A program made the translations under genes and the position numbers. The notes under the pieces were generated by a model. The model was given only the letters and a program-made list of their open reading frames with translations. It was not told the origin of the DNA and searched no databases. This document shows positions 12,135 through 32,969 of a stretch of DNA of 64,000 bases, piece after piece. Positions within the stretch are counted from its first letter, which is position 1. Each line of letters begins with the position of its first letter. Source of the stretch: Hyphomicrobiales bacterium (lineage in GTDB: Bacteria; Pseudomonadota; Alphaproteobacteria; Rhizobiales; Xanthobacteraceae); the NCBI GenBank assembly GCA_017305455.1, contig JAFKKO010000117.1, positions 21,824 to 85,823 on the forward strand. Reading direction: 5' to 3'.

Positions 12135-12418
12135 GACGTGTCGTGTTGCCCAAGAGCAGTCCTGGCATGCCAGCGTTATGTCGGAATGATTTCGCCCGGA
12201 CAGTTTGTCGCGTGGCCGCGCTGCCCCTGTTTTTCACAGCGTTTTCAAAAACATTCACGATGTGAATTCAGTCTATACGGCTGCGTGCGTAGGCAATCCC
12301 AAAGGTTTGTTTTTAGATCGATGCGTGAGAGATGCGCCACAATCGGCACAAGCCGGAATGTCAACCGACGAACGAAGTTGGCTGTCGCAAATCACGGAAC
12401 GCAACAGGGGGACTTTTT

Positions 12419-13408: not shown

Positions 13409-13412
13409 TCAA

Positions 13413-16071: not shown

Positions 16072-16994
16072 TCGAGGAACAACTCGCAGTTTTCATCGGA
16101 TCGGGCCTGCGCCTCGCTGCGCCCCTGATCTTCGCCGGCGCCGGCGAGATGCTCAGTGAGCGGGCCGGCGTCCTCAACCTCAGCCTCGACGGCATGATGC
16201 TGACCTCCGCTTTCACCGCGGCGGCGGCGTCCTGGGCGACCGGATCGCCGATGGCCGGACTCGCGGCCGGTATTATCGCCGCGGTGTCGGTGGCCTATGT
16301 GCAGGCGATCCTGAGCGTGACGTTGCGCGCCAACCAGCTTGTGGTCGGCATCGGCTTCAACATTCTGGCGCTCGGCGCGACGACGTTTCTCTACCGGGAA
16401 ATTTTCGGGCCGCTGTCGCGCGACGCCATTCCGGGCTTCACCCAGCTCAACTGGTCGTGGCTCACTGCCATTCCGGTGATCGGCCCCGCGCTGTCGCACC
16501 AGACCTGGCTTGTCTATCTCGCTATCTTCATGATGGTGGTGACCTGGGCGCTGCTGAAATACACCTCGTTCGGCCTTGCGGTGCGCGCGGTCGGCGAAGA
16601 CCCGCGCTCGGCCGACAAGGCCGGAATCAATGTCGGCCGCACGCGCTATCTTGCCGTGCTTTATGCCGGCGCGCTGGCGGGGCTGGGCGGTGCTTTCCTG
16701 TCGATTGCCGACAGCAACACCTTCACCGAGAACATGACCAAGGGCGCGGGCTATCTTGCCATCACCGCGGTGATTTTCGGCGGCTGGACTCCATGGCGCA
16801 CACTCGGCGCGTGCCTGCTGTTCGGCTTCGCCACGGCGCTGCAATTCCTGGTGCCGGCCCTGCAGATCGACGTTCCGGTGGCCTGGCTGCTGCTGCTGCC
16901 GTATCTTCTGGCGCTGATCGCGATCGCCGGCTTCGTCGGCAAGAGCCGCCAGCCGGCGGCGCTGACCATACCGTTCGCGCGCGGGGCATCGTGA
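16068..16994 (+). CDS. ABC transporter permease (second subunit)
   Basis: 308-aa polytopic membrane protein. It shares a 4-nt ATGA overlap with the preceding permease gene. Confidence 0.85.
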   Translation: MIEEQLAVFIGSGLRLAAPLIFAGAGEMLSERAGVLNLSLDGMMLTSAFTAAAASWATGSPMAGLAAGIIAAVSVAYVQAILSVTLRANQLVVGIGFNILALGATTFLYREIFGPLSRDAIPGFTQLNWSWLTAIPVIGPALSHQTWLVYLAIFMMVVTWALLKYTSFGLAVRAVGEDPRSADKAGINVGRTRYLAVLYAGALAGLGGAFLSIADSNTFTENMTKGAGYLAITAVIFGGWTPWRTLGACLLFGFATALQFLVPALQIDVPVAWLLLLPYLLALIAIAGFVGKSRQPAALTIPFARGAS

Positions 16995-17041
16995 TGCCCG
17001 CGCGATTCTCACCATCACTAGTACATTGAAAGGGAAGGTCC

Positions 17042-17854
17042 ATGGCTACGAACGCTAAGGTTTCGGAAAAGGCGCAGCCGGCGCAGGACGAGGTGAGGCC
17101 TCTTGGCACCGGCGGCTACAAATGGCTGGTCAGCGACAACAACGTGAACATGGCGATGGAGCCGCCGCCGCCGCGCGCTGTCACCATCGACGCGCAACAT
17201 CAGTCGGTGACGATGGACCTCAACCGCACGGCGATCCTTGTCATCGACATGCAGAACGATTTCTGCACCAAGGACGGTTGGGTCGACCACCTCGGCTTCG
17301 ATTACGCACCGGACCGCGCGCCGATCGGGCCGCTGCAGAAATTGCTGCCCGGCCTGCGCGCGGCGGGCGTGCCGGTGATCTGGGTGAACTGGGGCAACCG
17401 GCCGGACCTGATAAACATGCCGCCGAACCAGATCCATCTCTACAAGCGGACCGGCGTCGGCATCGGTCTTGGCGAGCCGCTGCCGGTCGGCGGCCACAAG
17501 GTGCTGGAGAAGGATAGCTGGGCTGCCGCGGTGGTGGACGAACTGAAGCCGCTGCCCGAGGACATCTGCGTCGACAAGTACCGCATGAGCGGTTTCTGGG
17601 ATACGCCGCTCGACAGCATCCTGCGCAATCTCGACACCCGGACTATCCTGTTCGCCGGCGTGAACACCGACCAGTGCGTGCTGCACTCGCTGACCGACGC
17701 CAACTTCCTCGGCTATGGCTGCGTCATGGTGGAGGACTGCTGCGCCACCACCTCGCCGGACTACTGCACGGCGGCGACGCTGTTCAACGTCAAGAAGGGC
17801 TTCGGCTTCGTGACGAAGTCCGACGCCATCCTCCGGGCGCTGCCCCGGCCCTGA
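17042..17854 (+). CDS. Isochorismatase-family cysteine hydrolase (amidohydrolase)
   Basis: The Asp-Lys-Cys triad context is visible: AILVIDMQNDFC, VDKYRMSGF, AGVNTDQCVLHS. There is a ~60-aa N-terminal extension relative to minimal family members. Confidence 0.8.
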   Translation: MATNAKVSEKAQPAQDEVRPLGTGGYKWLVSDNNVNMAMEPPPPRAVTIDAQHQSVTMDLNRTAILVIDMQNDFCTKDGWVDHLGFDYAPDRAPIGPLQKLLPGLRAAGVPVIWVNWGNRPDLINMPPNQIHLYKRTGVGIGLGEPLPVGGHKVLEKDSWAAAVVDELKPLPEDICVDKYRMSGFWDTPLDSILRNLDTRTILFAGVNTDQCVLHSLTDANFLGYGCVMVEDCCATTSPDYCTAATLFNVKKGFGFVTKSDAILRALPRP

Positions 17855-18016: not shown

Positions 18017-18046
18017 AAGGCCGCCCGCGAGGCGGCCTTTATTTTT
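18017..18046 (+). terminator. Intrinsic terminator closing the ABC/hydrolase operon
   Basis: Stem aaggccgcc/ggcggcctt with loop cgcga, followed by tattttt. The T-run is on the plus strand only. Confidence 0.7.
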
Positions 18047-18116: not shown

Positions 18117-18785
18117 TCACCGTGTCGGTATCAGCTCCGGCATCAAGGCTTTCGTCCCATCGAGAAATGCCCGGACAGCATCGATGACGATTGCGTCCAA
18201 CTGCTTTGGCGTCGGGGTTTGATAGACGAAGCGACGGATGGCCATATAGAAAATGCGGCCATGTAATCCCCAGAACATCTCCACTTCGCGTTCTGACAGC
18301 GGCACTTCTTCTTTCGACGGCAGCTTCAGCTCGTGGCGCAATTCGGCGCAGGCGGGTTCGATGATCTCCCTGCGGACGATCGCGAGATAGCGTCCGGTGA
18401 TGTCGAAGGATTTCATGCCGGAAAAGACGAAGATCCGTACCCAGTTATATTCGAACACCTGTTCCACGTATTCGAGATAGAACTGAACGAGCCGCGCTTG
18501 CAGCGGCTGGCTTCGATCGCGGATCAGTCCGCTCCATGATGGCGACCAGCGGCTGAGATAGATTTCCTCATAGACCCGCTCGATGAGCGCTTCCTTGCTC
18601 GGGAAATGCCGATAGATCGCCGAATGCGTGATGCCCATGCGTTTGGCGAGCTCGCGTGTCTGACCCCCAAATCCCTGTTCGGCGAAAAACCGAACCGCTT
18701 CGTCGACAATAAAGCGTTCCCGATCAGCCGCCCGCATGTTGCGGCGCGGCAGTTTTTTGGCTGATTTTGCTGACTTTTTTGCCAT
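18117..18785 (-). CDS. TetR/AcrR-family transcriptional regulator
   Basis: The HTH is FFAEQGFGGQTRELAKRMGITHSAIYRHFPSKEALI. It is divergent from the molybdenum hydroxylase operon. Confidence 0.9.
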   Translation of the reverse strand: MAKKSAKSAKKLPRRNMRAADRERFIVDEAVRFFAEQGFGGQTRELAKRMGITHSAIYRHFPSKEALIERVYEEIYLSRWSPSWSGLIRDRSQPLQARLVQFYLEYVEQVFEYNWVRIFVFSGMKSFDITGRYLAIVRREIIEPACAELRHELKLPSKEEVPLSEREVEMFWGLHGRIFYMAIRRFVYQTPTPKQLDAIVIDAVRAFLDGTKALMPELIPTR

Positions 18786-18830
18786 CTGCGTTCAGTGCGT
18801 TGTGAGGACACCGGGATAACCCAATAACAA

Positions 18831-18852
18831 AAAGTGACCAAGTGGTCATTTT
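18831..18852. promoter_or_regulatory. Palindromic operator 1 (aaaGTGACCA-ag-TGGTCAtttt) in the tetR/hydroxylase intergenic region
   Basis: 22-bp inverted repeat with one mismatch and core TGACCAAGTGGTCA. A second copy of the same half-site lies 56 bp downstream. Confidence 0.6.
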
Positions 18853-18886
18853 CTGTTGACGGGCATGGCTGAGGCATGATCTAGAT

Positions 18887-18906
18887 TTGAGACCAGATGG
18901 TCACAA
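18887..18906. promoter_or_regulatory. Palindromic operator 2 (ttgaGACCA-ga-TGGTCacaa)
   Basis: 20-bp inverted repeat with the same GACCA-N2-TGGTC core as operator 1. It lies 34 nt upstream of the TTG start at 18940. Confidence 0.6.
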
Positions 18907-18939
18907 TTCTGGACCCATAAACGAACCGGGGGGTTTGTT

Positions 18940-19800
18940 TTGAAGGCCCGAGCATTTCGCTATGCGCGGCCCGCCACTGTCGCGGAGGCGCTTGAGATCT
19001 TCGCAAGTTCCGGCGAGGACGCGAGCTATATCGCAGGCGGCCAGAGTCTGGTGCCCGCGCTTGCCCTGCGCCTGCAGGCGCCCGACATCCTGATCGACAT
19101 CGCACATATCGAGTCGCTTCGCGGCGTCGAGCTGCAAGGGCAGTGGCTGCGGATCGGCGCGCTGACGCGGCACTGCGAGGCGATGACCGATCCCCTGATT
19201 GTTCGGCATGCGCCGTTGTTTTGCGAAGCCGCGCCTCATGTGGCGCATCCCGCGATCCGCAACAAGGGCACGATCGGCGGCAGCATCTCACATGCGGATC
19301 CGGCCTCCGAATTTCCGGCGGTGGCGCTGGCGATGGGTGCCGAGCTTGAAATCGCAAACCGCGACGGAACACGTCGTGTGCCCGCCGATGATTTCTTCAT
19401 CGATCTGTTTCAGACGGCGATCGAGCCCGGCGAATTGCTGGTCGCGATCCATGTTCCGGTGGTGCGCACCGGCCACCGCTGGGCGTTTCATGAATTCGCG
19501 CGGCGTCGTGGCGACTTCGCTCTCGTCGGCTCCGGCATTCTCGCCGAGTTCGGCAATGGCCTGATCGAGCAGATCCGCATCGTGTTCTTCGGGGTCGGCA
19601 GTACGCCGGTCCGCGCCCGACAGGCCGAGGACGCGCTGATCGGCCGCGCCTTGAATCGGGAGACCATCATGGCCGCGCAGGCGGGGGTCGGCGAGGGTTT
19701 GACGCCGCCGGAAGATGAGCACGTCCCGCCGGCCATGCGGGTTCACCTTGCCCGCGTTCTTCTGGGCCGTCTGCTTGGTCAGATCATGGAGCAGGCATGA
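18940..19800 (+). CDS. Molybdenum hydroxylase FAD-binding (CoxM-like, medium) subunit
   Basis: FAD-binding motifs YIAGGQSLVPAL and NKGTIGGSISHADPASE. The start is TTG, as listed. Confidence 0.9.
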   Translation: MKARAFRYARPATVAEALEIFASSGEDASYIAGGQSLVPALALRLQAPDILIDIAHIESLRGVELQGQWLRIGALTRHCEAMTDPLIVRHAPLFCEAAPHVAHPAIRNKGTIGGSISHADPASEFPAVALAMGAELEIANRDGTRRVPADDFFIDLFQTAIEPGELLVAIHVPVVRTGHRWAFHEFARRRGDFALVGSGILAEFGNGLIEQIRIVFFGVGSTPVRARQAEDALIGRALNRETIMAAQAGVGEGLTPPEDEHVPPAMRVHLARVLLGRLLGQIMEQA

Positions 19801-20309
19801 GCCAGTTCGTTAACATCAACCTGCAGGTCAATGGCGACAAGGTGTCGAGCAGCGTGGCGCCGCGCGACACGCTGGCCGATTTCCTGCGTCAGACGCTTCA
19901 ACTGACCGGCACGCATACCGGTTGCGAAATGGGCATCTGCGGCGCGTGTCTCGTCATGCTGGATGGCCGCGTGGTGCATTCGTGCCTGACGTTCGCGGTG
20001 CAGGCAGACGGAGCGGCCGTGGAGACCATCGAAGGGTTGAGCGAGCGCGGCGCTATTGCCGATCTCCAGCAAGCCTTTCATCAGCGCAATGCATTGCAAT
20101 GCGGCTTCTGCACGCCGGGCGTGCTGATGACAGCCCATAGCCTGCTGTCCCAACCGGGCGTGCCCTCGCGCGAGGACATTCGCGACGCGCTGTCCGGCAA
20201 TTACTGCCGCTGTACCGGATATGAAGCCATCGTCGATGCGATCGAGGGCGTCGCGCGCTGCCGCAACGGTGCGCCCGCTGATCGCGAGATCGAGGAGGTG
20301 AATCGATGA
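19797..20309 (+). CDS. Molybdenum hydroxylase [2Fe-2S] (CoxS-like, small) subunit
   Basis: Two cluster motifs are present: GCEMGICGAC...C and QCGFCTPG...CRCTGY. It shares a 4-nt overlap with the flanking genes. Confidence 0.92.
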   Translation: MSQFVNINLQVNGDKVSSSVAPRDTLADFLRQTLQLTGTHTGCEMGICGACLVMLDGRVVHSCLTFAVQADGAAVETIEGLSERGAIADLQQAFHQRNALQCGFCTPGVLMTAHSLLSQPGVPSREDIRDALSGNYCRCTGYEAIVDAIEGVARCRNGAPADREIEEVNR

Positions 20310-22681
20310 ACGCGCCGCTGACCTCGCTCGATCGTCCGAATTCCTATATCGGCCGCTCGGTTCCGCGCCCTAATGCCAAGCGGCTGCTTGCCGGGCGTGG
20401 CCGCTATGTCACCGACATTATCCTGCCGCGGATGGTGCATGCCGCATTCGTGCGCAGTCCCCATGCCCATGCGCGCATCGTGTCCATCGATACCGAGGCC
20501 GCGCGCAACATGCCCGGCGTGCGTCTGGTGGCGACGGGGGAGGACCTGGCGCGGCTCTGCGCGCCGTGGGTGGGCACGCTTGATCATTTCAAGGGAATGA
20601 AATCACCGCCGCAACTGCCGCTGCCGATCGAGAAGGTGGTCTGGGCGGGGCAGGCGGTCGCTGCCGTTGTCGCGGACACGCGCGCCTTGGCCGAGGATGC
20701 GGCCGAGGCGGTTCAGATCGAGTTCGAGGAGCTTCCGGCGGTGGTCGATATCGATGCCGCGCGCAAGCCCGGCTCGCCGGTGATTTCGCCCGAGCTTGGC
20801 GATAACGTCTGCTTTCGCGGGAAAATCGACACCGGAGGCGTGGACGAGATTTTTGCCAACGCCGCGCATGTCGCCGAAGAAGAGTTCCGCTTCGGACGTC
20901 ACACCGCGGTGACGATGGAGCCGCGCGCCATTATCGCCGACTACGACGCCAACGAGCCCCGGCTGACGGTTCATCATGCCACGCAAACGCCCTATCAGTT
21001 TCAGGATATCTACTCCCGGCATTATGGCATCCCCGAATCCTGCGTGCGCGTGATCGCGCCCGATATCGGCGGCTCGTTCGGCATGAAGCTGCACATGTAT
21101 CATGAGGACATGGCGGTGGTCGGCCTCAGCATGATGCTCGGCCGGCCGGTGAAATATGTCGCCGACCGTATCGAATCGTTCGTCTCCGACATCCATGCGC
21201 GCGATCATCGGGTCCGCGCCCGCGTGGCCGCGGATGCCGAGGGCACCATCCTGGCGATGGATGTGGAGGACGTCACAGGGATCGGCGCTTTCTCCGCCTA
21301 TCCGCGCACCAGTGTAGTCGAAGGCAACCAGGTCTACCGGCTGATCGGCGCACCTTACGGCTTTCAGAATTACCGTGCCGACCTGCAAGTCGTTTTCCAG
21401 AATAAGGTGCAGATGAGCCAGTATCGGGCCGTCGGGCATCCGATCGCCTGCACAGTCACCGAGCGGCTGGTGGACATGGTTGCCGGCAAGGCTGCCCTGG
21501 ACGCCTTCGAGGTCCGCGCGCGCAACCTCATCCCCGACGACGCCTATCCGTGCGCATCGCCCACCGGCTTCAAGTTCGAAGCGCTCTCTCATCATGCCTG
21601 TCTGACCAAGCTGCGCGCGATGATGAACTACGATCACCTTCGTGCCGAGCAGGCCGAACTCAGGAAGCGCGGTATCCATCGCGGCATCGGCATTGCGGCG
21701 TTCGTCGAGATCACCAATCCCGGTCCCGCGTTTTATGGCGTCGGCGGTGCGCGGATTTCCTCGCAGGATGGCGCGATCATCAAGATCACGCCGTCCGGCG
21801 ACGTTCGCTGCCTGATCTCGGTCACCGAGCTGGGGCAGGGCACCGAAACCATCGTCGGCCAGATCGTGGCCGAGCATCTGGGTGTCGATCGTGCGCGGGT
21901 GAAGGTTCTCACCGGCGATACCGAGGTCACACCCCATGGCGGTGCGACATGGGCCTGCCGTGGCGCGGGTATCGGCGGCGAGACCGCGTTGCAGGCTGCG
22001 AACAAGCTCAAGGCAAATGTGCTTGCGGTCGCCGGCGCCATTTTGCAGGAGCAGCCGGACAAGCTCAACGTTCAGAACGGCTGGATCGTCGATGCGGCCA
22101 CGGCCCAGCAGCGAATCGAACTCTCCGAGATCGCGCGTATCGCTTATTTCCGGTCGGATACGCTGCCGCCCGGCACGCAAGCGCAGCTCTCGGTGGTGCA
22201 TCATTACGCGCCGCAAGGTTATCCTTTCGCATTCACCAACGGCTTGCAGGGTTGTTACATCGAACTCGACGTGGAAACAGGGTTCGCCAGGATCCTGAAG
22301 CACTGGGTCGTCGAGGATTGCGGCCGCGTCATCAATCCGATGCTGGTGGACGAACAGATCCGTGGCGGCGTGGTGCAGGGCCTGGGCGCCGCGTTCTTCG
22401 AAGAATGCATCTATGACGAGAGCGGTCAGCTCACCAACGGCTCGCTCGCGGACTATCTCGTGCCGATGGCGGCTGAGATGCCGGATATCGAGGTCGCCCA
22501 CGTCGAAACGCCCACGATGGACACGCAATTGGGAGCCAAGGGCGTCGGCGAGGCCGGCACTGCGGCGGCATCGGCCGCGGCGCTCAACGCCATCAACGAC
22601 GCGATGTCGCCGTTCGGGGCAACAATCGCGCAGGTTCCGATGACGCCGACAAGAATCCTGAAGGCGCTGGGAAAAATCTAA
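20306..22681 (+). CDS. Molybdopterin-binding large subunit (xanthine dehydrogenase/CoxL family), substrate unknown
   Basis: 791 aa. Motifs are DIGGSFGMK and a C-terminal GAKGVGEAGT with the conserved Glu. The region I take to be the active-site loop reads SQYRAVGHP, which is neither VAYRCSFR (form I CODH) nor AYRGAGR (form II). Confidence 0.88.
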   Translation: MNAPLTSLDRPNSYIGRSVPRPNAKRLLAGRGRYVTDIILPRMVHAAFVRSPHAHARIVSIDTEAARNMPGVRLVATGEDLARLCAPWVGTLDHFKGMKSPPQLPLPIEKVVWAGQAVAAVVADTRALAEDAAEAVQIEFEELPAVVDIDAARKPGSPVISPELGDNVCFRGKIDTGGVDEIFANAAHVAEEEFRFGRHTAVTMEPRAIIADYDANEPRLTVHHATQTPYQFQDIYSRHYGIPESCVRVIAPDIGGSFGMKLHMYHEDMAVVGLSMMLGRPVKYVADRIESFVSDIHARDHRVRARVAADAEGTILAMDVEDVTGIGAFSAYPRTSVVEGNQVYRLIGAPYGFQNYRADLQVVFQNKVQMSQYRAVGHPIACTVTERLVDMVAGKAALDAFEVRARNLIPDDAYPCASPTGFKFEALSHHACLTKLRAMMNYDHLRAEQAELRKRGIHRGIGIAAFVEITNPGPAFYGVGGARISSQDGAIIKITPSGDVRCLISVTELGQGTETIVGQIVAEHLGVDRARVKVLTGDTEVTPHGGATWACRGAGIGGETALQAANKLKANVLAVAGAILQEQPDKLNVQNGWIVDAATAQQRIELSEIARIAYFRSDTLPPGTQAQLSVVHHYAPQGYPFAFTNGLQGCYIELDVETGFARILKHWVVEDCGRVINPMLVDEQIRGGVVQGLGAAFFEECIYDESGQLTNGSLADYLVPMAAEMPDIEVAHVETPTMDTQLGAKGVGEAGTAAASAAALNAINDAMSPFGATIAQVPMTPTRILKALGKI

Positions 22682-22727
22682 CAAGAAAAAACGACGTGAA
22701 AAATAAATCCATATGGAGGAGGAAACT

Positions 22728-23978
22728 ATGAAGGACGTAATCCGGACTAGTGCTCGACAAAAGATTTCCCGCCGCAGCGCCCTCGTGGCGCTCGGCGCAG
22801 GTGCAAGCTATCTGGCCATGCCGTGGATCGCGCGGGCGGCAGACGATACCATCCGTGTCGGCTTTCCGACGCCGCTGACCGGGCCTTTCGCCGCCGAAGC
22901 GAAGGATCAGGTCAAGAGCGCGGAGCTTGCCGTCAAGCAGTTCAACGACAAGGGCGGCATTGGTGGCCGCAAGATCGAATTGCTGGTGCGGGACGACAAG
23001 CTCAATGGCGGCGAGGCCGCGACACGTACGCTGGAGCTGATCGAGAAGGACAAGGTCCATGCGATCGTTGGATCGCTGTCGAGCGCCGTACAGCTCGCCG
23101 TCAACGAAGTGACCCGCGCGCGCAATGTGATCTACATCTCGATCAGCCAGTCCGACACCATCAACGAGGTGAAGGACTTCAGCAAATATACCTTCCATGA
23201 GGCGCTCAACCCGCACATGACTGCCGGCGCCGTGGCGCGGCATACGTTCAAGAAGGGCTCGAAAGTCGCCTATCTTTCGGCCGACTATGCCTACGGGCAC
23301 GAAATGCTGCGCGGCTTCAAGCAGGCACAGGCCGCGCTCGGCGCGGAAAGCGTCGGCGAGATCCTGCACCCGTTCGGCGCGGCTGACTATTCGACCTTCA
23401 TGCCGCGTCTGCGGTCGATGCGCCCCGACATCCTTTGCATCAGCAATTTCGGTCGTGATCAGGCCAATTCGATCAAGCAGGCGGTCGATTTCGGCATGAA
23501 GCAGCAGATGAAGATCGTGGTTCCGGTCCTGCTGCACAATCAGCGACTGGCTGTCGGTCCCGAGGTCTTCGAGGGTGTTGTCGGTGGCGCCAACTACTAT
23601 TGGGGCCTGGAAAGCCAGATCCCCAGCGCAAAGGCTTTCAATGACGCCTATCGCGCCAGCCATGGCGGCGCGATCCCGACCGACTACGGCGCCTACGGTT
23701 ACACCGGACTTTATTCGCTACTGCTTGCGATGCAGGCTGCCGGCGGCACCGACACCGACAGGGTAATCGCCGCGCTCGAAGCGCTCAAATATGATGTCGC
23801 CAAGGGAGCTCAGCATTATCGCAAGTGCGACCATCAATCGGTACAGTCTGTCCTTGTTCTTGAATCGAAGAAGAAGGCGGACATGAAGAGCGATATGGAT
23901 ATGTTCCAGATCGTGGCGAATGAACCCGCCTCCGAGAGCGTTCTGCGCAGTTGCGCCGAACTCGGCTTTCCTACCTGA
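22728..23978 (+). CDS. Liv-type (Peripla_BP_6) ABC transporter substrate-binding protein
   Basis: ATG 22728 lies 4 nt after GGAGGAGG. There is an RR-containing signal (ISRRSALVALGAGASYLAMPWIARA), then TIRVGFPTPLTGPFA...GGIGGRKIELLVRDD, typical of branched-chain/aromatic-acid binding proteins. Confidence 0.88.
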   Translation: MKDVIRTSARQKISRRSALVALGAGASYLAMPWIARAADDTIRVGFPTPLTGPFAAEAKDQVKSAELAVKQFNDKGGIGGRKIELLVRDDKLNGGEAATRTLELIEKDKVHAIVGSLSSAVQLAVNEVTRARNVIYISISQSDTINEVKDFSKYTFHEALNPHMTAGAVARHTFKKGSKVAYLSADYAYGHEMLRGFKQAQAALGAESVGEILHPFGAADYSTFMPRLRSMRPDILCISNFGRDQANSIKQAVDFGMKQQMKIVVPVLLHNQRLAVGPEVFEGVVGGANYYWGLESQIPSAKAFNDAYRASHGGAIPTDYGAYGYTGLYSLLLAMQAAGGTDTDRVIAALEALKYDVAKGAQHYRKCDHQSVQSVLVLESKKKADMKSDMDMFQIVANEPASESVLRSCAELGFPT

Positions 23979-23997
23979 CGGGATGGCTGCTTTTCCA

Positions 23998-24864
23998 ATG
24001 GATGCAGAACTCATTCTGATGCAGCTCTTTTCCGGAGTTGCCCTCGGCGCGATCCTGATTATCGCCGCGCTCGGCCTGTCGATTATCTTCGGCATGCTGG
24101 GCGTGGTGAACTTCGCGCACGGAGCGTTGTTCATGGTCGGCGCCTACGCCGGATTGTGGGTGGCCTCTCTCACCGGCAGCTTCTGGTGGGGGCTTGTGGT
24201 GGCTCCGATCATGATCGGCCTGTTCGGCATGATCATCGAGTTCTTGCTGGTGCGTCCACTCTATGGCCGCTCGATCGACGACCCGCTGCTGCTGACCTTC
24301 GGATTGAGCTACGTGCTGGTCGAGGCCGTGCGCATGATCTTCGGCAGCGACGGGATTCCTTTCCCGACGCCGTCGCAGCTCACCGGCGTGGTCGATCTCG
24401 GCGTCGGGTTCTTCCCGATCTACCGTCTGTTCGTGATCGGCGTTACCGTCGTCGTGTTGCTGCTGCTGTGGTTCGGTCTCGAAAAGACGAAGTTCGGGCT
24501 GATCGTGCGCGCCGGAGCGCGGGACCCCACCATCATGCGGGTGCTCGGCGTCGATGTCGGCAAGGTCTGGCTGCTGGTGTTCGGCCTCGGCGTGGCGCTT
24601 GCGGCGCTGGGCGGTGTGCTGGCGGGACCGATGCGGAGCGTCAATCCGGAAATGGGATCGCTGGTGCTGGCCGAAGCTTTCGTCGTGACGGTGATCGGCG
24701 GCCTCGGCTCGCTGCTCGGATCGATCGTCGCGGGGCTGCTGGTCGGCATCGCGATCAGCATGACCGCGCTGTTCGCGCCCGAGATGGCGACCATCGTGAT
24801 GTTCGCGTTGATGGCGGTTGTTCTTCTGATCCGGCCGCAGGGCCTGTTCGGAAAACTCGCGTAA
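23998..24864 (+). CDS. Branched-chain-type ABC permease (LivH-like)
   Basis: MDAELILMQLFSGVALGAILII... is a typical LivH N-terminus. ATG 23983 is an alternative start. Confidence 0.85.
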   Translation: MDAELILMQLFSGVALGAILIIAALGLSIIFGMLGVVNFAHGALFMVGAYAGLWVASLTGSFWWGLVVAPIMIGLFGMIIEFLLVRPLYGRSIDDPLLLTFGLSYVLVEAVRMIFGSDGIPFPTPSQLTGVVDLGVGFFPIYRLFVIGVTVVVLLLLWFGLEKTKFGLIVRAGARDPTIMRVLGVDVGKVWLLVFGLGVALAALGGVLAGPMRSVNPEMGSLVLAEAFVVTVIGGLGSLLGSIVAGLLVGIAISMTALFAPEMATIVMFALMAVVLLIRPQGLFGKLA

Positions 24865-24876
24865 CGGAGCGGAAAC

Positions 24877-25869
24877 ATGACCTCTACTGCGTTTGCCGCA
24901 CCCAGATTGCCCACCGATCGCAAGCCATCCGGGCTGGCGGCGGCATTGACGGCATATCGTGTGCCGCTGTCGGTCGCAGCCCTGTGCCTGTTGCCATGGC
25001 TGTTGCCGTCGCAGGCGCTGGCCGTCAATGTTCTGGTCTATGGCGTGCTGGCGGTCGGCTACAATCTGCTGTTCGGCTACACCGGCATGCTGTCTTTCGG
25101 ACATGCGGCGTTCTTCGGCGCCGGTGCTTACGTCGCCGGCATCGCGATCAGCAAGTTCGGAATTCCGTGGTATGCCGCCGTGCCGCTCGGCATTGTCGGC
25201 GGAGGCGTGCTGGCGTTCATCATCGGCGTGCTGTCCACCCGAACGCGCGGCATCTATTTCTCGATGGTGACGCTCGCGCTGGCCCAGCTCATTTATTATG
25301 TGGCGCTGCAGGCCTCCTCCTGGACAGGTGGCGAGAACGGCCTGCGCGGGTTGACCGTCGACAAGATCAATCTGTTCGGATGGAGCATCAATTTTCTCGA
25401 TCCGGTCAACAAGTACTACGTGCTGATGGTTCTGGCCGCGCTGGCGTTGCTGATCGTCTCCCGCATTCTCAATTCGCCTTTCGGCGCCGCGATCGAAGCC
25501 ATCCGCGAGAACGAGCGGCGGGCGCGAACCTGCGGGTTTAATGTCGAGCGCACCAAGCTGCTGTCGTTTACGCTGTCGGGCCTGATCTGCGCGCTGGCCG
25601 GAACGATGTCGGCACTTCATCTCGCCTTCGTTCCTCTGGATGTTCTGCACTACCAGACCTCCGGCATGATTGTGATGATGACCCTGCTGGGCGGCACGCG
25701 AAGCTTTTTCGGCCCGTTCATCGGCGCGCTTGTCTTTCTGTTGATGGAGGACGTGTTCTCGCTGTGGACCTCCCATTGGCAGATCATTGTCGGCTCGATC
25801 TTCGTGCTTTTCGTTCTATTCCTGCCGAAGGGAATCTGGGGCACCTTTCTGTCGAAGGTGATGCGATGA
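24877..25869 (+). CDS. Branched-chain-type ABC permease (LivM-like)
   Basis: 330-aa polytopic protein with LFGYTGMLSFGHAAFFGAGAY, the LivM-family motif. Confidence 0.85.
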   Translation: MTSTAFAAPRLPTDRKPSGLAAALTAYRVPLSVAALCLLPWLLPSQALAVNVLVYGVLAVGYNLLFGYTGMLSFGHAAFFGAGAYVAGIAISKFGIPWYAAVPLGIVGGGVLAFIIGVLSTRTRGIYFSMVTLALAQLIYYVALQASSWTGGENGLRGLTVDKINLFGWSINFLDPVNKYYVLMVLAALALLIVSRILNSPFGAAIEAIRENERRARTCGFNVERTKLLSFTLSGLICALAGTMSALHLAFVPLDVLHYQTSGMIVMMTLLGGTRSFFGPFIGALVFLLMEDVFSLWTSHWQIIVGSIFVLFVLFLPKGIWGTFLSKVMR

Positions 25870-26621
25870 GTACGCCGCTTCTGGCCGTCGAGAATGCCGG
25901 GCGCAGCTTCGGCGGATTTCTCGCTCTTGAGGGCGTGACCGCGGCTTTTCAGCCGGGCAAGGTGACGTCGATCATCGGGCCGAACGGCGCGGGCAAGAGC
26001 ACGTTCTTCAATCTGCTGTCGGGTGTGCTGACGCCATCGAGCGGCTCGATCCGCTTCAAGGGCCGCGACCTGAAAGGAACGCCGCAGCATGAATTCGTGC
26101 ATCTGGGGATCGCGCGATCCTATCAGATCACCACCATCTTTCCCGATCTCAGCGTGCATGAGAACGTGCGCGTCGCGGCGCAGGCCGGGCAGTGGCGTTA
26201 CAATATCTGGATCAATCGGAAGAAACTTTCCGATCTGGACGCAAAGGCCGACAGCGCGCTTGAAGCCGTTGGCCTGATCGGCAAGCGCGACGAGACCGCG
26301 AAGTTTCTGGCGCATGGCCAGCAGCGCGCGCTCGAAATCGCGATTGCTTTGGTTTCCGATCCGGAGGTGCTGCTGCTCGACGAGCCGACGGCCGGGATGG
26401 GGCCCGAAGAAACCAAGGACATGGTGGCGTTGCTGGAGAAGCTCGCCACCCAGCGGACCATCCTTCTTGTCGAGCACAAGATGAAGATGATTCTCGGCCT
26501 CAGCGACCGCATCCTGGTCCTGCACCATGGCCGCCTGATTGCGGATGGCACGCCGCACGACATTCAGACGGACCCCGAGGTCCGCCGCGTCTATCTGGGA
26601 CAGAACCATGGCTATGCTTGA
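25866..26621 (+). CDS. ABC ATP-binding protein (LivG-like)
   Basis: The start overlaps the LivM stop (ATGA). Walker A is GPNGAGKST, the signature is LAHGQQRALEIA, and the C-terminal tail is LivG-like. Confidence 0.9.
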   Translation: MSTPLLAVENAGRSFGGFLALEGVTAAFQPGKVTSIIGPNGAGKSTFFNLLSGVLTPSSGSIRFKGRDLKGTPQHEFVHLGIARSYQITTIFPDLSVHENVRVAAQAGQWRYNIWINRKKLSDLDAKADSALEAVGLIGKRDETAKFLAHGQQRALEIAIALVSDPEVLLLDEPTAGMGPEETKDMVALLEKLATQRTILLVEHKMKMILGLSDRILVLHHGRLIADGTPHDIQTDPEVRRVYLGQNHGYA

Positions 26622-27318
26622 GACCAGGGACCTCCACGCCTGGTATGGCGCGAGCCATACGCTGCACGGGGTGTCGATTTCGGTGGGGCAGGGCGAAGTC
26701 GTCGCCCTTGTCGGCCGCAACGGCGCCGGCAAGACCACCACGATCCGCTCCATCATGGGGCTGATGTCCAAAACGGCGGGCAGCGTGACCTTTGACGGCA
26801 CCGAGCTGATGCCTCTGCGCTCGCATCACCGCTTCGCGCTCGGTCTGGCCTATGTTCCCGAGGAGCGCCGCATCGTCCCCGGACTGACGGTGCGCGAGAA
26901 CCTGCAGCTCGGCCTTGTCGCCAGCGACGGGCGCATCAACGAGCGCGTTGCGATCGACGAGATCGCGGAGAGTTTTCCTCGCCTCAAGGAGCGGCTCAAT
27001 CAGGAGGCGGTGACGATGTCCGGCGGCGAACAGCAGATGCTGGCGATCGCCCGCGCGACCATCGCCAAGCCGAAGATGATCCTGCTCGACGAGCCTTCGG
27101 AGGGCATCATGCCGGTGCTGGTCGAGGAGATGGGCGTGCTGTTTCGCCGCCTGCGCGATCAGGGCGTCACGCTGCTCCTGGTGGAGCAGAATGTGGAATG
27201 GGCGCTGCGTCTGGCCGATCGCGCCGTCATCATCGATCAGGGCGAGGTTGTTTACGAGAGCAGTGCCGCGACCTTGCTGGCCGACAAGGCCATTCAGGAC
27301 CGCTACTGCGCCGTGTGA
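26608..27318 (+). CDS. ABC ATP-binding protein (LivF-like)
   Basis: Walker A is GRNGAGKTT and the signature is MSGGEQQMLAIA. It overlaps the LivG stop. ATG 26614 is an alternative start. Confidence 0.9.
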   Translation: MAMLETRDLHAWYGASHTLHGVSISVGQGEVVALVGRNGAGKTTTIRSIMGLMSKTAGSVTFDGTELMPLRSHHRFALGLAYVPEERRIVPGLTVRENLQLGLVASDGRINERVAIDEIAESFPRLKERLNQEAVTMSGGEQQMLAIARATIAKPKMILLDEPSEGIMPVLVEEMGVLFRRLRDQGVTLLLVEQNVEWALRLADRAVIIDQGEVVYESSAATLLADKAIQDRYCAV

Positions 27319-27346
27319 TTTTTTCGATCGAAGCAGGATTTCCCCG

Positions 27347-27817
27347 ATGCAAATGAACGACAGCCAGCCGATCCCGGCTTCACGCGAGAAAGTCTGGGCC
27401 GCGCTCAACGATCCCGAGGTGCTGCGCCAGTGCATTCCGGGCTGCCAGGCTCTCGAGATGACATCGCCGACCGACATGACGGCGAAGGTTGTGGTCAAGG
27501 TTGGACCCGTCAAGGCAACCTTCGGCGGCAAGGTGACCCTGAGCGATCTCGATCCTCCGAACGGTTACAGGATTACCGGCGAAGGCTCCGGCGGCGTCGC
27601 CGGCTTCGCCAAGGGCGGCGCGGCGATCAGGCTCGAGGCCGTGAGCGAGAACGAGACGATCCTGCACTACGAGGTCGACTCGCAGATCGGCGGCAAGCTG
27701 GCTCAACTCGGAAGCCGGTTGATCGATTCCACCGCCAAGAAGCTGGCGGGTGAATTCTTCGCAAAGTTCGGAGCGGTCGTCTCCGAAAGTCCGGGTGACG
27801 TCTCCGTCGGGGCGTGA
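27347..27817 (+). CDS. CoxG-like SRPBCC-family protein
   Basis: MQMNDSQPIPASREKVWAALNDPEVLRQCIPGC...GGKLAQLGSRLID matches the carbon monoxide dehydrogenase subunit G family. The start is moved from the listed 27191. Confidence 0.85.
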   Translation: MQMNDSQPIPASREKVWAALNDPEVLRQCIPGCQALEMTSPTDMTAKVVVKVGPVKATFGGKVTLSDLDPPNGYRITGEGSGGVAGFAKGGAAIRLEAVSENETILHYEVDSQIGGKLAQLGSRLIDSTAKKLAGEFFAKFGAVVSESPGDVSVGA

Positions 27818-28010: not shown

Positions 28011-28032
28011 GAACATATTGCGAACAAGGAAC
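28011..28032. promoter_or_regulatory. Alphaproteobacterial SOS (LexA) box GAAC-N7-GAAC upstream of recA, with a third GAAC 3 nt further on
   Basis: The sequence reads GAACatattgcGAACaagGAAC, 106 nt upstream of the recA ATG. It matches the GAAC-N7-GAAC / GTTC-N7-GTTC direct-repeat LexA site described for Rhizobiaceae and Rhodobacter. Confidence 0.75.
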
Positions 28033-28137: not shown

Positions 28138-29226
28138 ATGGCACCTGCTGCCCTGCGTATCGTCGAAGGAACTTCCATGGACAAGACCAAGGCTCTGTCG
28201 GCCGCGCTCTCCCAGATCGAGCGCCAGTTCGGCAAGGGCTCCGTGATGAGGCTGGGCAAGAACGACCGCTCGATGGACGTCGAGGTGGTGTCCTCCGGCT
28301 CGCTTGGCCTCGATATCGCGCTCGGCGTCGGCGGCTTGCCCAAGGGGCGGGTGGTCGAGATTTACGGCCCGGAATCCTCCGGCAAGACCACGCTGGCGCT
28401 GCATTGCGTCGCCGAGGCGCAGAAGAAGGGTGGCATCTGCGCCTTCATCGACGCTGAACACGCGCTCGATCCGGTCTATGCCCGCAAGCTCGGCGTCAAT
28501 GTCGATGAGCTTCTGATTTCCCAGCCCGACCATGGCGAGCAGGCGCTGGAGATCGCCGACACGCTGGTGCGCTCCGGCGCGGTCGACGTGCTGATCGTCG
28601 ATTCGGTGGCGGCGCTGGTGCCGCGCGCCGAACTTGAGGGCGAGATGGGCGATGCGCTGCCCGGCCTGCAGGCGCGTCTGATGAGCCAGGCGCTGCGCAA
28701 GCTGACCGCCTCGATCAACAAGTCCCACACCATGGTGATCTTCATCAACCAGATCCGCATGAAGATCGGTGTGATGTACGGCTCGCCCGAGACCACCACC
28801 GGTGGCAACGCGCTGAAATTCTACGCCTCGGTCCGTCTCGACATTCGCCGCATCGGCGCGATCAAGGAGCGCGACGAGGTGATCGGCAACTCCACCCGCG
28901 TCAAGGTGGTGAAGAACAAGCTGGCGCCGCCGTTCAAGCAGGTCGAATTCGACATCATGTATGGCGAGGGCGTCTCCAAGATGGGCGAGATCCTCGACCT
29001 CGGCGTCAAGGCCGGCATTGTCGAGAAGTCCGGCGCCTGGTTCTCCTACGACAGTCAGCGCCTTGGTCAGGGCCGCGAGAACTCCAAGGCCTTCCTCAAG
29101 GCCAATCCCGATCTCACCGCCAAGATCGAAACCGCGATCCGGCAGAATTCCGGTTTGCTGGCCGAGCAGATTCTGGCCGGCACGCCCGAGAGCGATGCCG
29201 AAGGCGAGGAGCCGGCGGAAGATTGA
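28138..29226 (+). CDS. recA: Recombinase RecA
   Basis: [18 protein letters not shown], Walker [11 protein letters not shown], and full-length similarity to RecA. AAGGAG lies 8 nt upstream of ATG 28138. Confidence 0.98.
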
Positions 29227-29533: not shown

Positions 29534-32404
29534 CTACTCCGCCGCCTGCGCGTAGTCCGACACCGGCGGGCAGGAGCAGACCAGATTGCGGTCGCCATAG
29601 ACGTTGTCGACGCGGCCGACCGGCGACCAGTATTTGTCGTTGCGCGAGGTGCCGGCCGGGAAGCAGCCGTCGGCGCGCGCGTAGGGCCGCTGCCAGCCGT
29701 CGTCGGCGATGTCATGCACGGTGTGCGGCGCGTTGCGCAGCGGCGAGGCCTCGATCGGCCAGCGATTGTTCTCCACCTCGGCGATCTCGCGGCGGATCGC
29801 GATCATCGCCTCGCAGAAACGATCGAGCTCGGCCTTCGCTTCGGATTCGGTCGGCTCGATCATCAGCGTGCCGGGCACCGGGAAGCTCATGGTCGGCGCG
29901 TGGAAGCCGTAATCGATCAGCCGCTTGGCGATGTCGTCCACGGTGACGCCGCAGGAGGTCTTCAGCGGCCGCGGATCGACGATGCATTCATGCGCGACGC
30001 GGCCGCGTTCGTTGCGATAGAGCACCGGAAAATGCGGATCGAGCCGCTGCGCGATGTAGTTGGCGTTGAGGATCGCGATCTCGGTCGCGCGCTTGAGGCC
30101 CTCGCCGCCCATCATCAGGATATAGAGATACGAGATGACGAGGATCGAGGCCGAGCCGTACGGCGCGGCGCTGACCGCGCCCACCGCCGCCGCGCCGCCA
30201 TCGCACGCGATATGTCCGGGCAGGAACGGCGCGAGATGCTTTCGCACGCCGATCGGGCCCATGCCGGGGCCGCCGCCGCCATGCGGAATGCAGAACGTCT
30301 TGTGCAGGTTGAGATGGCTGACATCGGCGCCGTAATCGCCCGGCCGCGACAGCCCGACTTGCGCGTTGAGGTTGGCGCCGTCGAGATAAACCTGTCCGCC
30401 GTGCTGATGCACGATGTCGCAGATGTCGCGAATGTGCTCCTCGAACACGCCGTGCGTCGAGGGATAGGTGATCATCACCGCCGCGAGGCTGGAAGCGTGC
30501 TGTTCGGCTTTCTTGCGCAGATCATCGACATCGACATTGCCGTGCGTGTCGCACGCCACCACCACGACCTCCATGCCCGCCATGCTGGCGGAGGCCGGGT
30601 TGGTGCCGTGCGCCGAGGAGGGGATCAGGCACACCGTGCGCTGCGGCTCGCCGCGCGCGGCGTGATAGGCGCGGATCGCCAGCAAGCCGGCATATTCGCC
30701 CTGCGCGCCGGAGTTCGGCTGCAGCGAGATCGCGTCATAGCCGGTGATGGCGATCAGCATCTCTTCCAGCCGCTTGAACAGCGCGTGATAGCCGGCGGAC
30801 TGTGCCTTGGGCACGAAGGGATGCAGCGCGCCGAACTCCGGCCATGTCACCGGCATCATCTCGGTGGTGGCGTTGAGCTTCATGGTGCATGAGCCGAGCG
30901 GGATCATCGCGCGGTCGAGCGCAAGATCGCGGTCCGCGAGCTTGCGCATGTAGCGCAAGAGCTCGGTCTCGGAGCGATGGGCGTGAAACACCGGATGGGT
31001 GAGGAACGCGCCAGTCCGCACCAGCTCCGGCGGCAGCGCCTCGCGCGCCTGCCGCTCGATCTCGTCATAGGCGAGGTTGCCGCCGAAGGCGCGCCACACT
31101 GCCTCGATGATGGCGGGCGTGGTGGTCTCGTCGAGCGCGATCGCCAGCGTGCCGTCACCAACGTGCAGGTTGATCTGCTCGGCCAACGCCCGCGTCACGA
31201 TCTCGTTCTGCCGCGCGCCATCCACCTTCACCGTGACGGTGTCGAAGAATGTCTCGCTGGTCGGCGCAAAGCCGAGCTTGCGCAGACCCGCCGCCAGCGC
31301 CGCCGTGCGGCGGTGCACGGTGCGTGCGATATGCGTCAGCCCTTCGGGGCCGTGATAGACGGCGTACATCGAGGCGATCACCGCCAGCAGCACCTGCGCG
31401 GTGCAGATGTTGGAGGTCGCTTTCTCGCGGCGGATGTGCTGCTCCCGGGTCTGCAGCGCGAGGCGATAGGCCGGCGCGCCGCGCGCATCGACCGACAGGC
31501 CGACAAGGCGGCCGGGCATCGTGCGCTTGAGCGCGTCCTTCACCGCCATGTAGGCGGCATGCGGTCCGCCATAGCCCATCGGTACGCCGAAGCGCTGCGC
31601 CGAGCCGATTGCGATGTCGGCGCCGAGTTCGTCGGGCGAAGCCAGCAGCGTCAGCGCCAACAGATCGGCGGCAATGATCGCGATGCCGCCTTTGGCATGC
31701 AGCGCAGCGATCGCGGCGCGGGGATCGCGCACTGCGCCGTCCGTGCCGGGATACTGGAACAGCGCGCCGAACACCTCGGCTTTATCGAGATCGCGCGCCG
31801 GATCGCCGACGATCAGCGTCCAGCCGAGCGGCTCGGCGCGGGTGCGCAGCACCGCCAGCGTCTGCGGATGCACCGCCTGATCGACGAAGAACGCGCTTGC
31901 CTTCACCTGCGCGGAGCGATGCGCCAGCGCCATCGCTTCCGCCGCCGCGGTTGCCTCGTCGAGCAGCGAGGCGTTGGCGACATCGAGGCCGGTCAGATCG
32001 CAAATCATGGTCTGAAAGTTGAGCAGCGCTTCCAGTCGGCCCTGGCTGATCTCAGGCTGATACGGCGTGTAGGCAGTGTACCAGGCCGGGTTCTCCAGAA
32101 TGTTGCGCTGGATCACCGCCGGCAGGATGGTGCCGGAATAGCCTTGACCGATCAGCGAGGTGAACACGCTGTTCTGTGCGGCGAGTTCGCGCATATGCGC
32201 CAGCGCCTCGGTCTCGCTCAGCGCCGGGCCGAGATCGAGCGGCTTCGCCTGCCGGATCGAGGCAGGCAGCGTCTCGCCGATCAGCGCGTCGATACTTTTG
32301 GCACCGACAGTTTCCAGCATCGCGGCGATATCGCGCGGTGAGGGACCGATGTGCCGGCGCGCGAAGTCGGTCGCGGGTTCATTCGAGGGGCGATGCGCGG
32401 TCAT
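29534..32404 (-). CDS. gcvP: Glycine dehydrogenase (decarboxylating), single-chain P protein
   Basis: 956 aa with full-length GcvP similarity (e.g. [29 protein letters not shown]). It is the last gene of gcvT-gcvH-gcvP. Confidence 0.97.
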
Positions 32405-32449
32405 TTGAAGATCCTTGAAGCTTCAAAAGTTGTGAAAGGGACAACGCTT

Positions 32450-32570
32450 CACCTCTCCCCGTCGGGGAGAGGTCGGATTGCGCAGCAATCCGGGTGAGGG
32501 GGATCGAATTTCAGTTTCAGGCATCTGGCGCCCCTCACCCCAACCCTCTCCCCGGCGGGGAGAGGGAGCG
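32450..32570. repeat. Nested palindromic REP/MITE-like element in the gcvH-gcvP spacer
   Basis: It contains hairpins cctctcccc-gtc-ggggagagg, gattgc-gca-gcaatc and ccctctcccc-ggc-ggggagaggg, plus the flanking inverted pair gggtgagggg/cccctcaccc. Confidence 0.75.
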
Positions 32571-32595
32571 CATCGTGCATGTCGATCCATCAGTC

Positions 32596-32961
32596 TCACG
32601 CCGTGTGCGCCTTGTAGGCGGCTTCATCCATCAGGCCGTCGAGTTCGCTTTTGTCGGCGATCTTCAGCTTGAAGAACCACGCGCCCTTGCCGGGATCGGA
32701 GTTCACCAGCGAAGGATCGGCGACCACGGCGTCGTTGACGGCGACGACCTCGCCGGTGATCGGCGCGTAGACGTCGGACGCGGCCTTGACGCTCTCGACG
32801 GTCGCGGCGGCTTCCGCCTTCTTCAGCGCGCGGCCGACCTTGGGCAGTTCGACGAACACCACGTCGCCGAGCTGGGTCTGGGCGAAGTCGGTGATGCCGA
32901 TCGTGGCGACGTCGCCTTCGATCTGCAGCCATTCATGGTCGTCGGTGAACAAAGTGGTCAT
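32596..32961 (-). CDS. gcvH: Glycine cleavage system H protein
   Basis: 121 aa with the lipoyl-lysine motif VESVKAASD. Confidence 0.97.
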
Positions 32962-32969
32962 GCATGTCC

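Follow-up and report, generated by a model that had tools for sequence, protein, structure and literature searches.

A CoxMSL-like molybdenum hydroxylase module with a linked importer in Hyphomicrobiales, predicted not to be a CO dehydrogenase

The closest described relatives of the system reported here, a ten-gene module within a 64,000-nucleotide stretch of a Hyphomicrobiales genome (contig JAFKKO010000117.1; the whole stretch is called the window below), are three-subunit molybdenum hydroxylases with an FAD-binding M subunit, an S subunit carrying two [2Fe-2S] clusters and a molybdopterin-binding catalytic L subunit. One of them is quinoline 2-oxidoreductase, QorMSL, of Pseudomonas putida 86 (PDB 1t3q). 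Another is form I CO dehydrogenase (CODH), CoxMSL, of Oligotropha carboxidovorans (1n5w) and Mycobacterium smegmatis (8uem/8uds), whose partner CoxG, a menaquinone-binding protein, takes electrons from the Mo-CODH and delivers them to the respiratory chain; members of the enzyme family that are not CODHs can likewise have a CoxG homologue beside them (Kropp et al., PMC12202499). Form I enzymes are defined by the active-site loop (A/S)YRCS(F/L)R with a Cu-binding Cys, and form II enzymes by AYRGAGR (PMC13240472). NdhLMS and Kdh of plasmid pAO1 (7dqx) are N-heterocycle catabolic hydroxylases on the same CoxL-like branch with an SRPBCC protein nearby, and CdhABC of Pseudomonas sp. CBB1 (PMC4408171), compared here by description only, is a CoxL-like heterotrimer that hydroxylates a neutral N-heterocycle. 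As for uptake, Rhodopseudomonas palustris has both a HAAT-type ABC system (CouPSTU) and a TRAP system (TarPQM) for the same non-amino-acid substrates, which are aromatic acids (PMC3610893).

The module in the window combines features of all of these, with a divergent TetR gene facing an operon for an MSL enzyme, a Liv/Urt-type ABC importer and a CoxG-like SRPBCC protein. It resembles Qor in its three subunits and in a Val at the position of Phe914 of xanthine dehydrogenase (AYRGVGF in QorL, QYRAVGH in the window L), but the two L subunits are 36.6% identical, QorL falls into a clade with NdhL, and the window operon adds an importer, TetR, CoxG and its own invariant loop. With form I CODH it shares the subunits, the M-S-L order and the CoxG partner, whereas L identity is 32-35%, the Cu-ligating Cys loop, coxDEF (within 64 kb) and the CoxG tether are lacking, and an importer is embedded. 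Ndh and Kdh belong to other clades, the Kdh loop being of the PYRGAGRP type, and on pAO1 the enzymes adjoin coxD/E/F-like genes and a complete downstream pathway, neither of which is present at the window module. The Cdh genes cluster with HpxO-, UraH- and UraD-like genes, and a copy of the module on plasmid pMRAD01 of Methylobacterium radiotolerans adjoins uraH, uraD and an FAD oxidoreductase gene, but urate-type neighbours of the present module occur in this one lineage only. CouPSTU and TarPQM coexist in one genome and serve aromatic acids, whereas here orthologous operons have one type of importer in place of the other, and the TRAP binding proteins lack the carboxylate-binding arginine. 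By analogy, the module would work like the catabolic molybdenum hydroxylases (Qor, Ndh/Kdh, Cdh), with an electron output like that of Mo-CODH with CoxG. We consider it likely that it is a self-contained, substrate-inducible unit that imports a small compound and oxidises it with a non-CODH molybdenum enzyme.

Enzyme identity and conservation of the module

The M, S and L domains all scored above the Pfam gathering cut-offs, giving the three-subunit CoxMSL/QorMSL type, and both cluster-binding Cys motifs are present in S (CEMGICGAC...C and CGFC...CRC). By these domain criteria the window MSL is a xanthine oxidase family molybdenum hydroxylase with predicted activity. In HMMER alignments to solved structures, L residues 371-379 (SQYRAVGHP) align with GAYRGVGFT of QorL and VAYRCSFR of CoxL/CutL, the catalytic Glu motif GAKGVGEAG (L residues 743-751) aligns with the Glu motif of QorL and CoxL, and the Mo-site Gln is conserved (ATQTP of L opposite ATQMP of QorL). 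A preliminary description of this DNA had placed the active-site loop at SQYRAVGHP and noted that it contains neither VAYRCSFR nor AYRGAGR; the alignments confirm this placement, and both signatures are absent at the aligned position. Because SQYRAVGHP aligns with both reference loops yet differs from them, having neither the Cu-binding Cys nor the form II AYRGAGR, the enzyme appears to be neither a form I nor a form II CODH, and judged by its sequence it is not a CO dehydrogenase. The loop is invariant throughout the family of the window L, as (S/C)QYR(A/G)VGHP.

The best solved match to L was QorL, over the full length (3.3e-146, 492 bits), followed in identity by M. smegmatis CoxL (34.8%) and by Oligotropha and Hydrogenophaga CoxL/CutL (32-33%), and about 45 clusters in a library of 50%-identity representatives outscored QorL against the window L. 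A neighbour-joining tree of 153 sequences with midpoint rooting, which suffices against tight clustering but not for deep branching order, placed the window L within a 12-leaf clade, with QorL and NdhL, KdhL and the AYRGAGRP sequences, and form I CoxL all in other clades; QorL paired with NdhL outside a 23-leaf clade containing the window L. Orthology with QorL was rejected on the basis of its identity and separate clade, and L clusters with no characterised enzyme in the tree. L reached no NCBIfam equivalog cut-off. No MoxR (CoxD), VWA (CoxE) or CoxF/XdhC domain was found in any called open reading frame (ORF) of the 64-kb window, so the reported absence of coxDEF holds here, but its use as an argument does not carry the same weight: since the nicotine Mo-enzymes of pAO1 do have coxDEF-like genes, the missing genes are weak evidence against CODH. 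Orthologues carry the JGI name 'aerobic carbon-monoxide dehydrogenase large subunit', and this public naming is wrong for the window L family.

A genome scan with one genome per species yielded 80 loci with L identities of 51-97%. All ten genes were colinear, with TetR divergent and within 11 kb, at 52 of the 80 loci and in at least 12 genera, and TetR through LivF was present at 63, many of the other loci lying on contigs that end early. Carriers include Afipia, Tardiphaga, Bosea, Ancylobacter, Xanthobacter, Aquabacter, Azorhizobium, Methylobacterium, Neorhizobium, Phreatobacter, Enterovirga and others, and the ten-gene arrangement is far beyond chance. The flanks of the module differ between genera; the window belongs to an Afipia-like genome, and locus L001, from an uncultured Afipia and 97% identical to the window across the region, alone has the window's neighbours on both sides. 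The identities of all partner genes correlated with that of L (r 0.82-0.96; transporter genes r 0.90-0.96), the mean identity across loci being 81% for the binding protein and 80% for L, and a TetR orthologue (56-96% identity) was found in nearly all related loci. The whole module also occurs on pMRAD01, with L and the binding protein each 62% identical to those of the window. Both permeases appear as one fused ORF of about 630 aa in a Beijerinckiaceae metagenome-assembled genome (MAG; L059) and a Roseiarcus MAG (L061), and no CoxG was detected after the ATPases in these two or in a Rhodopseudomonas MAG (L060).

Collectively, the module is an orphan but well-delimited family of an already familiar type. 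The placement of a transporter within it, which had been described as unusual, is the standard form of the family in Hyphomicrobiales, and related families also hold transporters in MSL operons, as in Roseivivax (TRAP-MSL) and on Alicycliphilus pDP3 (HAAT importer between two MSL sets). The A. denitrificans pDP3 locus (L082, 2342-14406) is a different catabolic cluster: around its HAAT ABC importer and two MSL sets it also carries amidase, CoA ligase, thioesterase, CoxG, two XdhC and UbiA-type prenyltransferase genes, and one of its L subunits, with the loop GMYRGVGIP, is 52% identical to the window L.

The importer and its replacement

By its domain set (Peripla_BP_6, two BPD_transp_2 proteins and two ATPases), the importer is assigned to the HAAT ABC family. 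Its components scored better with urea-type than with branched-chain amino acid models, at 207.8 versus 100.8 bits for UrtB and LivH on permease 1 (UrtB cut-off 250.3), 150.5 versus 113.4 bits for UrtC and LivM on permease 2, and 231 versus 205 bits for UrtE and LivF on ATPase 2 (UrtE cut-off 286), and equivalence to LivJHMGF or UrtABCDE was not supported, every Liv and Urt equivalog score lying under its cut-off. The nearest solved structure to the binding protein was 3i09 (1.7e-46), and no close relative with a ligand was found. Signal peptides are missing from M and S, with no Tat signal in S, and the binding protein has a Tat-like SRRSAL...ARA/AD signal; with signals absent from the enzyme and a Tat-like one on the binding protein, the enzyme would be cytoplasmic and the binding protein periplasmic, and therefore a periplasmic substrate must be imported.

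What speaks most strongly for the importer as the supplier of the enzyme's substrate is its exchange for a non-homologous system in modules whose enzyme, regulator and operator remain orthologous. In the orthologous modules of Stappia, a Rhodobacteraceae MAG and Cereibacter (L 63-67% identical), TetR, MSL, the SQYRAVGHP loop and CoxG are kept and the ABC genes are absent; CoxG lies directly 3' of L and is followed by DctP, DctQ and DctM, a TRAP system. The position of CoxG directly after L in Stappia and Cereibacter fits the ABC genes of the window lying between L and CoxG, consistent with the embedding of a complete importer between these two genes that had been noted from the sequence. In Shinella the transporter of the orthologous module is an MFS protein from the aromatic-acid:H+ symporter family. 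Behind the module come a GntR regulator gene and three ORFs that resemble TctC/B/A in size only, no family match having confirmed them. A sister subclade (subclade B; L 57-62% identical, loop (S/C)QYRAVGHP) forms a seven-gene unit, TetR divergent from MSL-DctPQM, in Dinoroseobacter shibae (pDSHI05), Loktanella and others; marine Rhodobacterales have it very commonly (at least 594 relatives), and among 83 loci a DctP gene was present in 65 and a DctM gene in 68, with no other conserved neighbours found. The TRAP binding proteins of the two subclades are orthologous (64-66% identity). Since one Hyphomonadaceae MAG holds both subclades (L052 and L167) and Stappia species hold one or the other, their specificities may differ somewhat. 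The loop, the tree, the co-inheritance of the transporter genes and the exchange of ABC for TRAP thus all support the dedicated import-and-hydroxylate operon that was first proposed.

Substrate class and alternative explanations

The substrate is tentatively taken to be a small polar N-containing compound, in preference to a classical aromatic carboxylate. We lean this way because the TRAP carboxylate arginine is absent and the ABC parts score best on Urt models. At the place of KKIRTM in TeaA and of LKLRTPG in another D. shibae DctP, the TRAP binding proteins linked to the module have RKLNAPG or RRLSAPG; the arginine that they lack is the one that restricts canonical TRAP systems to carboxylates (PMC4646407). 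An initial argument that TRAP linkage implies a carboxylate substrate was withdrawn, the canonical arginine being missing in the alignment. Conceivable candidates, offered with low confidence, are a purine, pyrimidine, pyridine or imidazole N-heterocycle or an amide- or ureide-like molecule. The module stands beside purine or ureide genes in two lineages, that of the window (an operon with FdrA, AllG and a BiuH/RutB-like hydrolase) and pMRAD01, where its neighbours are NCS1, two uraH genes, uraD and the FAD oxidoreductase gene. A general link of this kind was rejected: when all loci were searched, the uraH, uraD, FAD oxidoreductase and NCS1 proteins matched only pMRAD01, and the FdrA, AllG, BMP and isochorismatase proteins matched only the Afipia lineage.

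Several observations weigh against this view of the substrate or against the model as a whole. Purine or ureide neighbours are confined to the two lineages named; the TRAP alignment, although unambiguous in the arginine motif, is at about 25% identity; and the Urt scores are all below cut-off. The binding protein is about equally near the aromatic-acid binder 4ey3 (94.8 bits) and the urea binder 7s6e (87.6 bits). A neutral substrate in particular sits uneasily with the aromatic-acid:H+ symporter family of the Shinella transporter and with the activity of QorL-like enzymes on aromatic heterocycles. For the TRAP proteins of the orthologous modules, no solved liganded structure was found, the best PDB matches being TeaA and UehA (about 1e-21), and the literature search found no characterised orthologue of the enzyme. 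On the side of electron output, most subclade-B TRAP modules have no CoxG, and the window CoxG has no tether of the M. smegmatis kind. A recurrent extra neighbour also has no place in the model, the gene for a CoA-acylating methylmalonate-semialdehyde dehydrogenase (MMSDH), usually together with LysR and 1-3 kb from the module. It was found at loci L004, L011, L042, L052, L055 and L057 (TIGR01722, 678-696 bits, above cut-off), in four arrangements and four lineages (Tardiphaga, a Hyphomonadaceae MAG, Aquabacter and Xanthobacter), which is too frequent for chance, and no beta-alanine, pyrimidine or other pathway genes were found around it.

The main alternative retains the same mechanism with an aromatic or N-heteroaromatic carboxylate (nicotinate, picolinate, isonicotinate or a quinoline-carboxylate) as the substrate, and we regard it as unlikely, if still a serious contender. 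Quinoline 2-oxidoreductase is the nearest solved enzyme and has the loop Val in common with the window L, but QorL remains distant in identity and is outscored by the many cluster representatives mentioned above. On the transport side, HAAT binding proteins of related bacteria take aromatic acids, 4ey3 is among the PDB matches, the ABC and TRAP systems of R. palustris are redundant for the same aromatic acids (PMC3610893), and Shinella has its aromatic-acid:H+ symporter family protein along with the TctC/B/A-sized ORFs of unconfirmed family; set against this, the module-linked TRAP proteins are without the arginine that clamps the carboxylate (PMC4646407). Ring-cleavage or other downstream genes do not accompany the module. 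The lean of the preliminary description towards aromatic acids is therefore not specifically supported, given TRAP proteins without the carboxylate arginine and ABC parts nearest to urea-transporter models.

A role as an aldehyde oxidoreductase, converting an imported or intracellular aldehyde to the acid with no hydroxylation of a heterocycle, seems very unlikely. Although the top NCBIfam matches of all three subunits are archaeal glyceraldehyde dehydrogenase subunits (NF041018-20), the scores are well under cut-off (563 versus 790 for the alpha subunit model on L, 244 versus 350 and 184 versus 290), and among solved structures Sulfolobus 4zoh (270 bits) and the PaoC, MOP and aldehyde-oxidase structures fall far below QorL and CoxL. 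The only recurrent neighbour, MMSDH, is itself an aldehyde dehydrogenase, and one-step conversion to a common acid would account for the lack of travelling pathway genes; however, high-affinity importers dedicated to free aldehydes are, to our knowledge, not a known theme.

That the ABC system is an ordinary Liv amino-acid importer with no functional relation to the hydroxylase, as its public name ('branched-chain amino acid transport system') and the Pfam families it shares with Liv systems would have it, is highly improbable: it scores far under the LivJ, LivH and LivM cut-offs, is co-inherited and co-diverges with L across genera, keeps its position on pMRAD01 with the binding protein and L at equal identity, and in orthologous modules under the same operator is replaced by TRAP, not merely lost. 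A form II-type or otherwise atypical CODH is barely credible, since the JGI names, the presence of CoxG and high but sub-threshold NCBIfam CODH scores (522 versus 950, and 487 versus 991 for the aerobic large subunit) stand against a loop with no Cys, AYRCSFR or AYRGAGR, an L outside both the form I and the AYRGAGRP clades, a window devoid of coxDEF, and a gas substrate that needs no binding-protein importer, yet some type of transporter is conserved with the enzyme.

Gene organisation, regulation and proposed mechanism

A profile search of the window ORFs recovered the divergent TetR gene and the nine plus-strand genes, all ten at the coordinates and with the Pfam domains first described (Table 1). 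For M a TTG start is taken; the next in-frame start codon would cut into the domain. The M/S and S/L junctions are both ATGA overlaps of 4 nt, as had been reported. Downstream, L is separated from the binding protein gene by a 46-nt gap with a ribosome-binding site (GGAGGAGG), followed by gaps of 4-19 nt (binding protein to LivH) and 12 nt (LivH to LivM), overlaps of 4 nt (LivM/LivG, ATGA) and 8-14 nt (LivG/LivF), and a 28-nt gap from LivF to CoxG. A terminator scan inside the operon gave weak intragenic matches only, 6 against 9.1 expected from shuffled sequence and none convincing, which agrees with the short or overlapping junctions without a recognisable terminator in the preliminary description. 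From this spacing we infer a single transcript for the nine operon genes.

Table 1. Coordinates of the module genes, the operator-like sites and the upstream boundary in the window
Feature	Position	Strand	Evidence and remarks
Terminator-like hairpin, strong; boundary to the upstream operon	18017-18039	+	9-bp stem, 7 G-C pairs, then T-run; outside the module
TetR-family repressor gene	18117-18785	-	TetR_N at 2.3e-14; divergent from the operon
Operator-like palindrome O1, GACCAAGTGGTC	18836-18847	.	TetR-M intergenic region
Operator-like palindrome O2, GACCAGATGGTC	18891-18902	.	about 40 nt 5' of the M start codon
M subunit, FAD-binding flavoprotein, 286 aa, TTG start	18940-19800	+	FAD_binding_5 at 6e-52, CO_deh_flav_C at 2e-24
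S subunit, two [2Fe-2S] clusters, 170 aa	19797-20309	+	Fer2, Fer2_2
L subunit, molybdopterin-binding, catalytic, 791 aa	20306-22681	+	Ald_Xan_dh_C, MoCoBD_1, MoCoBD_2
Periplasmic binding protein, HAAT (Liv/Urt) type	22728-23978	+	Peripla_BP_6 at 3e-81, Tat-like signal
Permease 1, LivH/UrtB-like	23983-24864	+	BPD_transp_2; start 23983 or 23998
Permease 2, LivM/UrtC-like	24877-25869	+	BPD_transp_2
ATPase 1, LivG/UrtD-like	25866-26621	+	ABC_tran, BCA_ABC_TP_C tail
ATPase 2, LivF/UrtE-like	26608-27318	+	ABC_tran; start 26608 or 26614
CoxG-like SRPBCC protein, 156 aa	27347-27817	+	PF06240 (COXG) at 2.9e-33

The TetR protein has an N-terminal TetR helix-turn-helix domain, and two GACCAnnTGGTC palindromes lie in the intergenic region that it shares with the operon, as expected of a repressor of this type. 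The pattern GACCANNTGGTC matched 3 times in the window against 0.05 expected. A looser GACC-N4-GGTC was found between TetR and M at 46 of 55 loci, the TRAP-type Stappia included, and also in Cereibacter; close relatives mostly have two palindrome copies about 53-55 nt apart, Shinella has a weaker operator match directly 5' of its separated M gene, and D. shibae has a diverged palindrome pair (GAGCAAnTGATC). The C-terminal ligand domain of TetR matched no ligand-defined TetR, and an Rfam scan revealed no riboswitch in or before the module. A search for a wider TetR regulon with GACC-N4-GGTC was abandoned as uninformative, its matches lying mostly in conserved coding sequence. The third exact palindrome copy in the window (GACCAGATGGTC, identical to O2) is at 13235-13246, inside the 3' end of the called ORF for a BMP binding protein (12332-13408), and the ORF of an ABC ATPase has its first candidate start (13314) 79 nt farther on; the palindrome could tie this upstream transporter to the same TetR regulon or could be due to chance.

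The window CoxG, assigned to the CoxG family by its PF06240 domain next to MSL, is 51% identical to the Stappia CoxG that stands directly after L. Its PDB matches were 2pcs and, more weakly, M. smegmatis CoxG (8uds_D, 9.5e-10). The M. smegmatis protein has a C-terminal membrane tether (PMC12202499); the window protein ends in ...AVVSESPGDVSVGA, with no hydrophobic tail, and is thus not classed as tethered. With no tether on the window protein, and with CoxG absent from most subclade-B modules, quinone coupling through CoxG would not be obligatory. By comparison with form I CODH, electrons probably pass from FAD to quinone via CoxG, and the whole path may run from Mo through the two [2Fe-2S] clusters and FAD to quinone.

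Gene content, domains, cofactor-binding motifs, the loop, synteny, the operator and the exchange of importers are direct results of the analysis; beyond these we infer repression, co-transcription, the direction of transport, quinone coupling and the substrate class of this module, and propose the following sequence of events. With no inducer present, TetR would bind the two palindromes between its gene and the operon, and derepression would yield one transcript for importer, hydroxylase and CoxG. The binding-protein-dependent ABC importer would then carry a small organic compound into the cytoplasm, where the three-subunit molybdenum hydroxylase would place water-derived oxygen at an activated C-H of this compound. 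The CoxG-type SRPBCC protein may present quinone to the FAD subunit, so that the two electrons would leave the Mo centre through both [2Fe-2S] clusters and FAD to quinone and on to the respiratory chain. Genes of a downstream pathway do not accompany the module, so presumably the product is some common metabolite that would be processed by enzymes encoded elsewhere.

Among the surroundings, a second cluster for uptake and catabolism, immediately upstream of the module (7909-17854), consists of a LysR gene (-) and a plus-strand operon (9033-17854) that encodes an FdrA-family protein (488 bits, above cut-off), AllG/DUF1116, the BMP-family binding protein, a double ABC ATPase, two permeases and an isochorismatase-family hydrolase that is nearest to biuret hydrolase BiuH and to RutB, both below cut-off. 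Judged from these genes it looks like an operon for the use of a ureide or N-rich compound, and among the related loci it is common only to L001. On the 3' side of the module is recA (28138-29226), with a GAAC-N7-GAAC element (GAACATATTGCGAAC) at 28011-28025, about 110 nt 5' of the recA start. We take this to have the form of an alphaproteobacterial SOS box; the pattern is not rare in the window (3 versus 1.8 expected). For gcvT-gcvH-gcvP (29534-34412, -), the longest gcvT ORF includes a glycine riboswitch aptamer (34289-34376, -; 60.8 bits against a gathering score of 32), and the true gcvT start must accordingly lie downstream of about 34289. At 52536-54805 (-), an EgtD-like histidine methyltransferase (Methyltransf_33) adjoins an EgtB-like protein (DinB_2, FGE-sulfatase), an ergothioneine-biosynthesis pair.

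With regard to its wider meaning, the naming of this family as 'CO dehydrogenase' makes CO oxidisers appear too numerous in surveys of soil and sea, and the combination of the loop (S/C)QYR(A/G)VGHP with a linked importer offers an easy way to leave the family out of such counts. Hyphomicrobiales of soil and plants commonly carry the family, as marine Rhodobacterales do its sister clade, and the substrate is therefore probably abundant in the environment. A more far-reaching proposal, speculative and distinctly doubtful, is that the module and its marine TetR-MSL-TRAP sister represent a widespread respiratory scavenging of an abundant small polar non-carboxylate N compound, a novel substrate for molybdenum enzymes. 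If this were true, a molybdenum hydroxylase would link high-affinity uptake directly to the reduction of quinone, by a logic like that of atmospheric CO or H2 oxidation applied to a dissolved organic substrate. A ligand common to the unrelated ABC- and TRAP-type binding proteins would name the substrate without the need to purify the molybdenum enzyme first.

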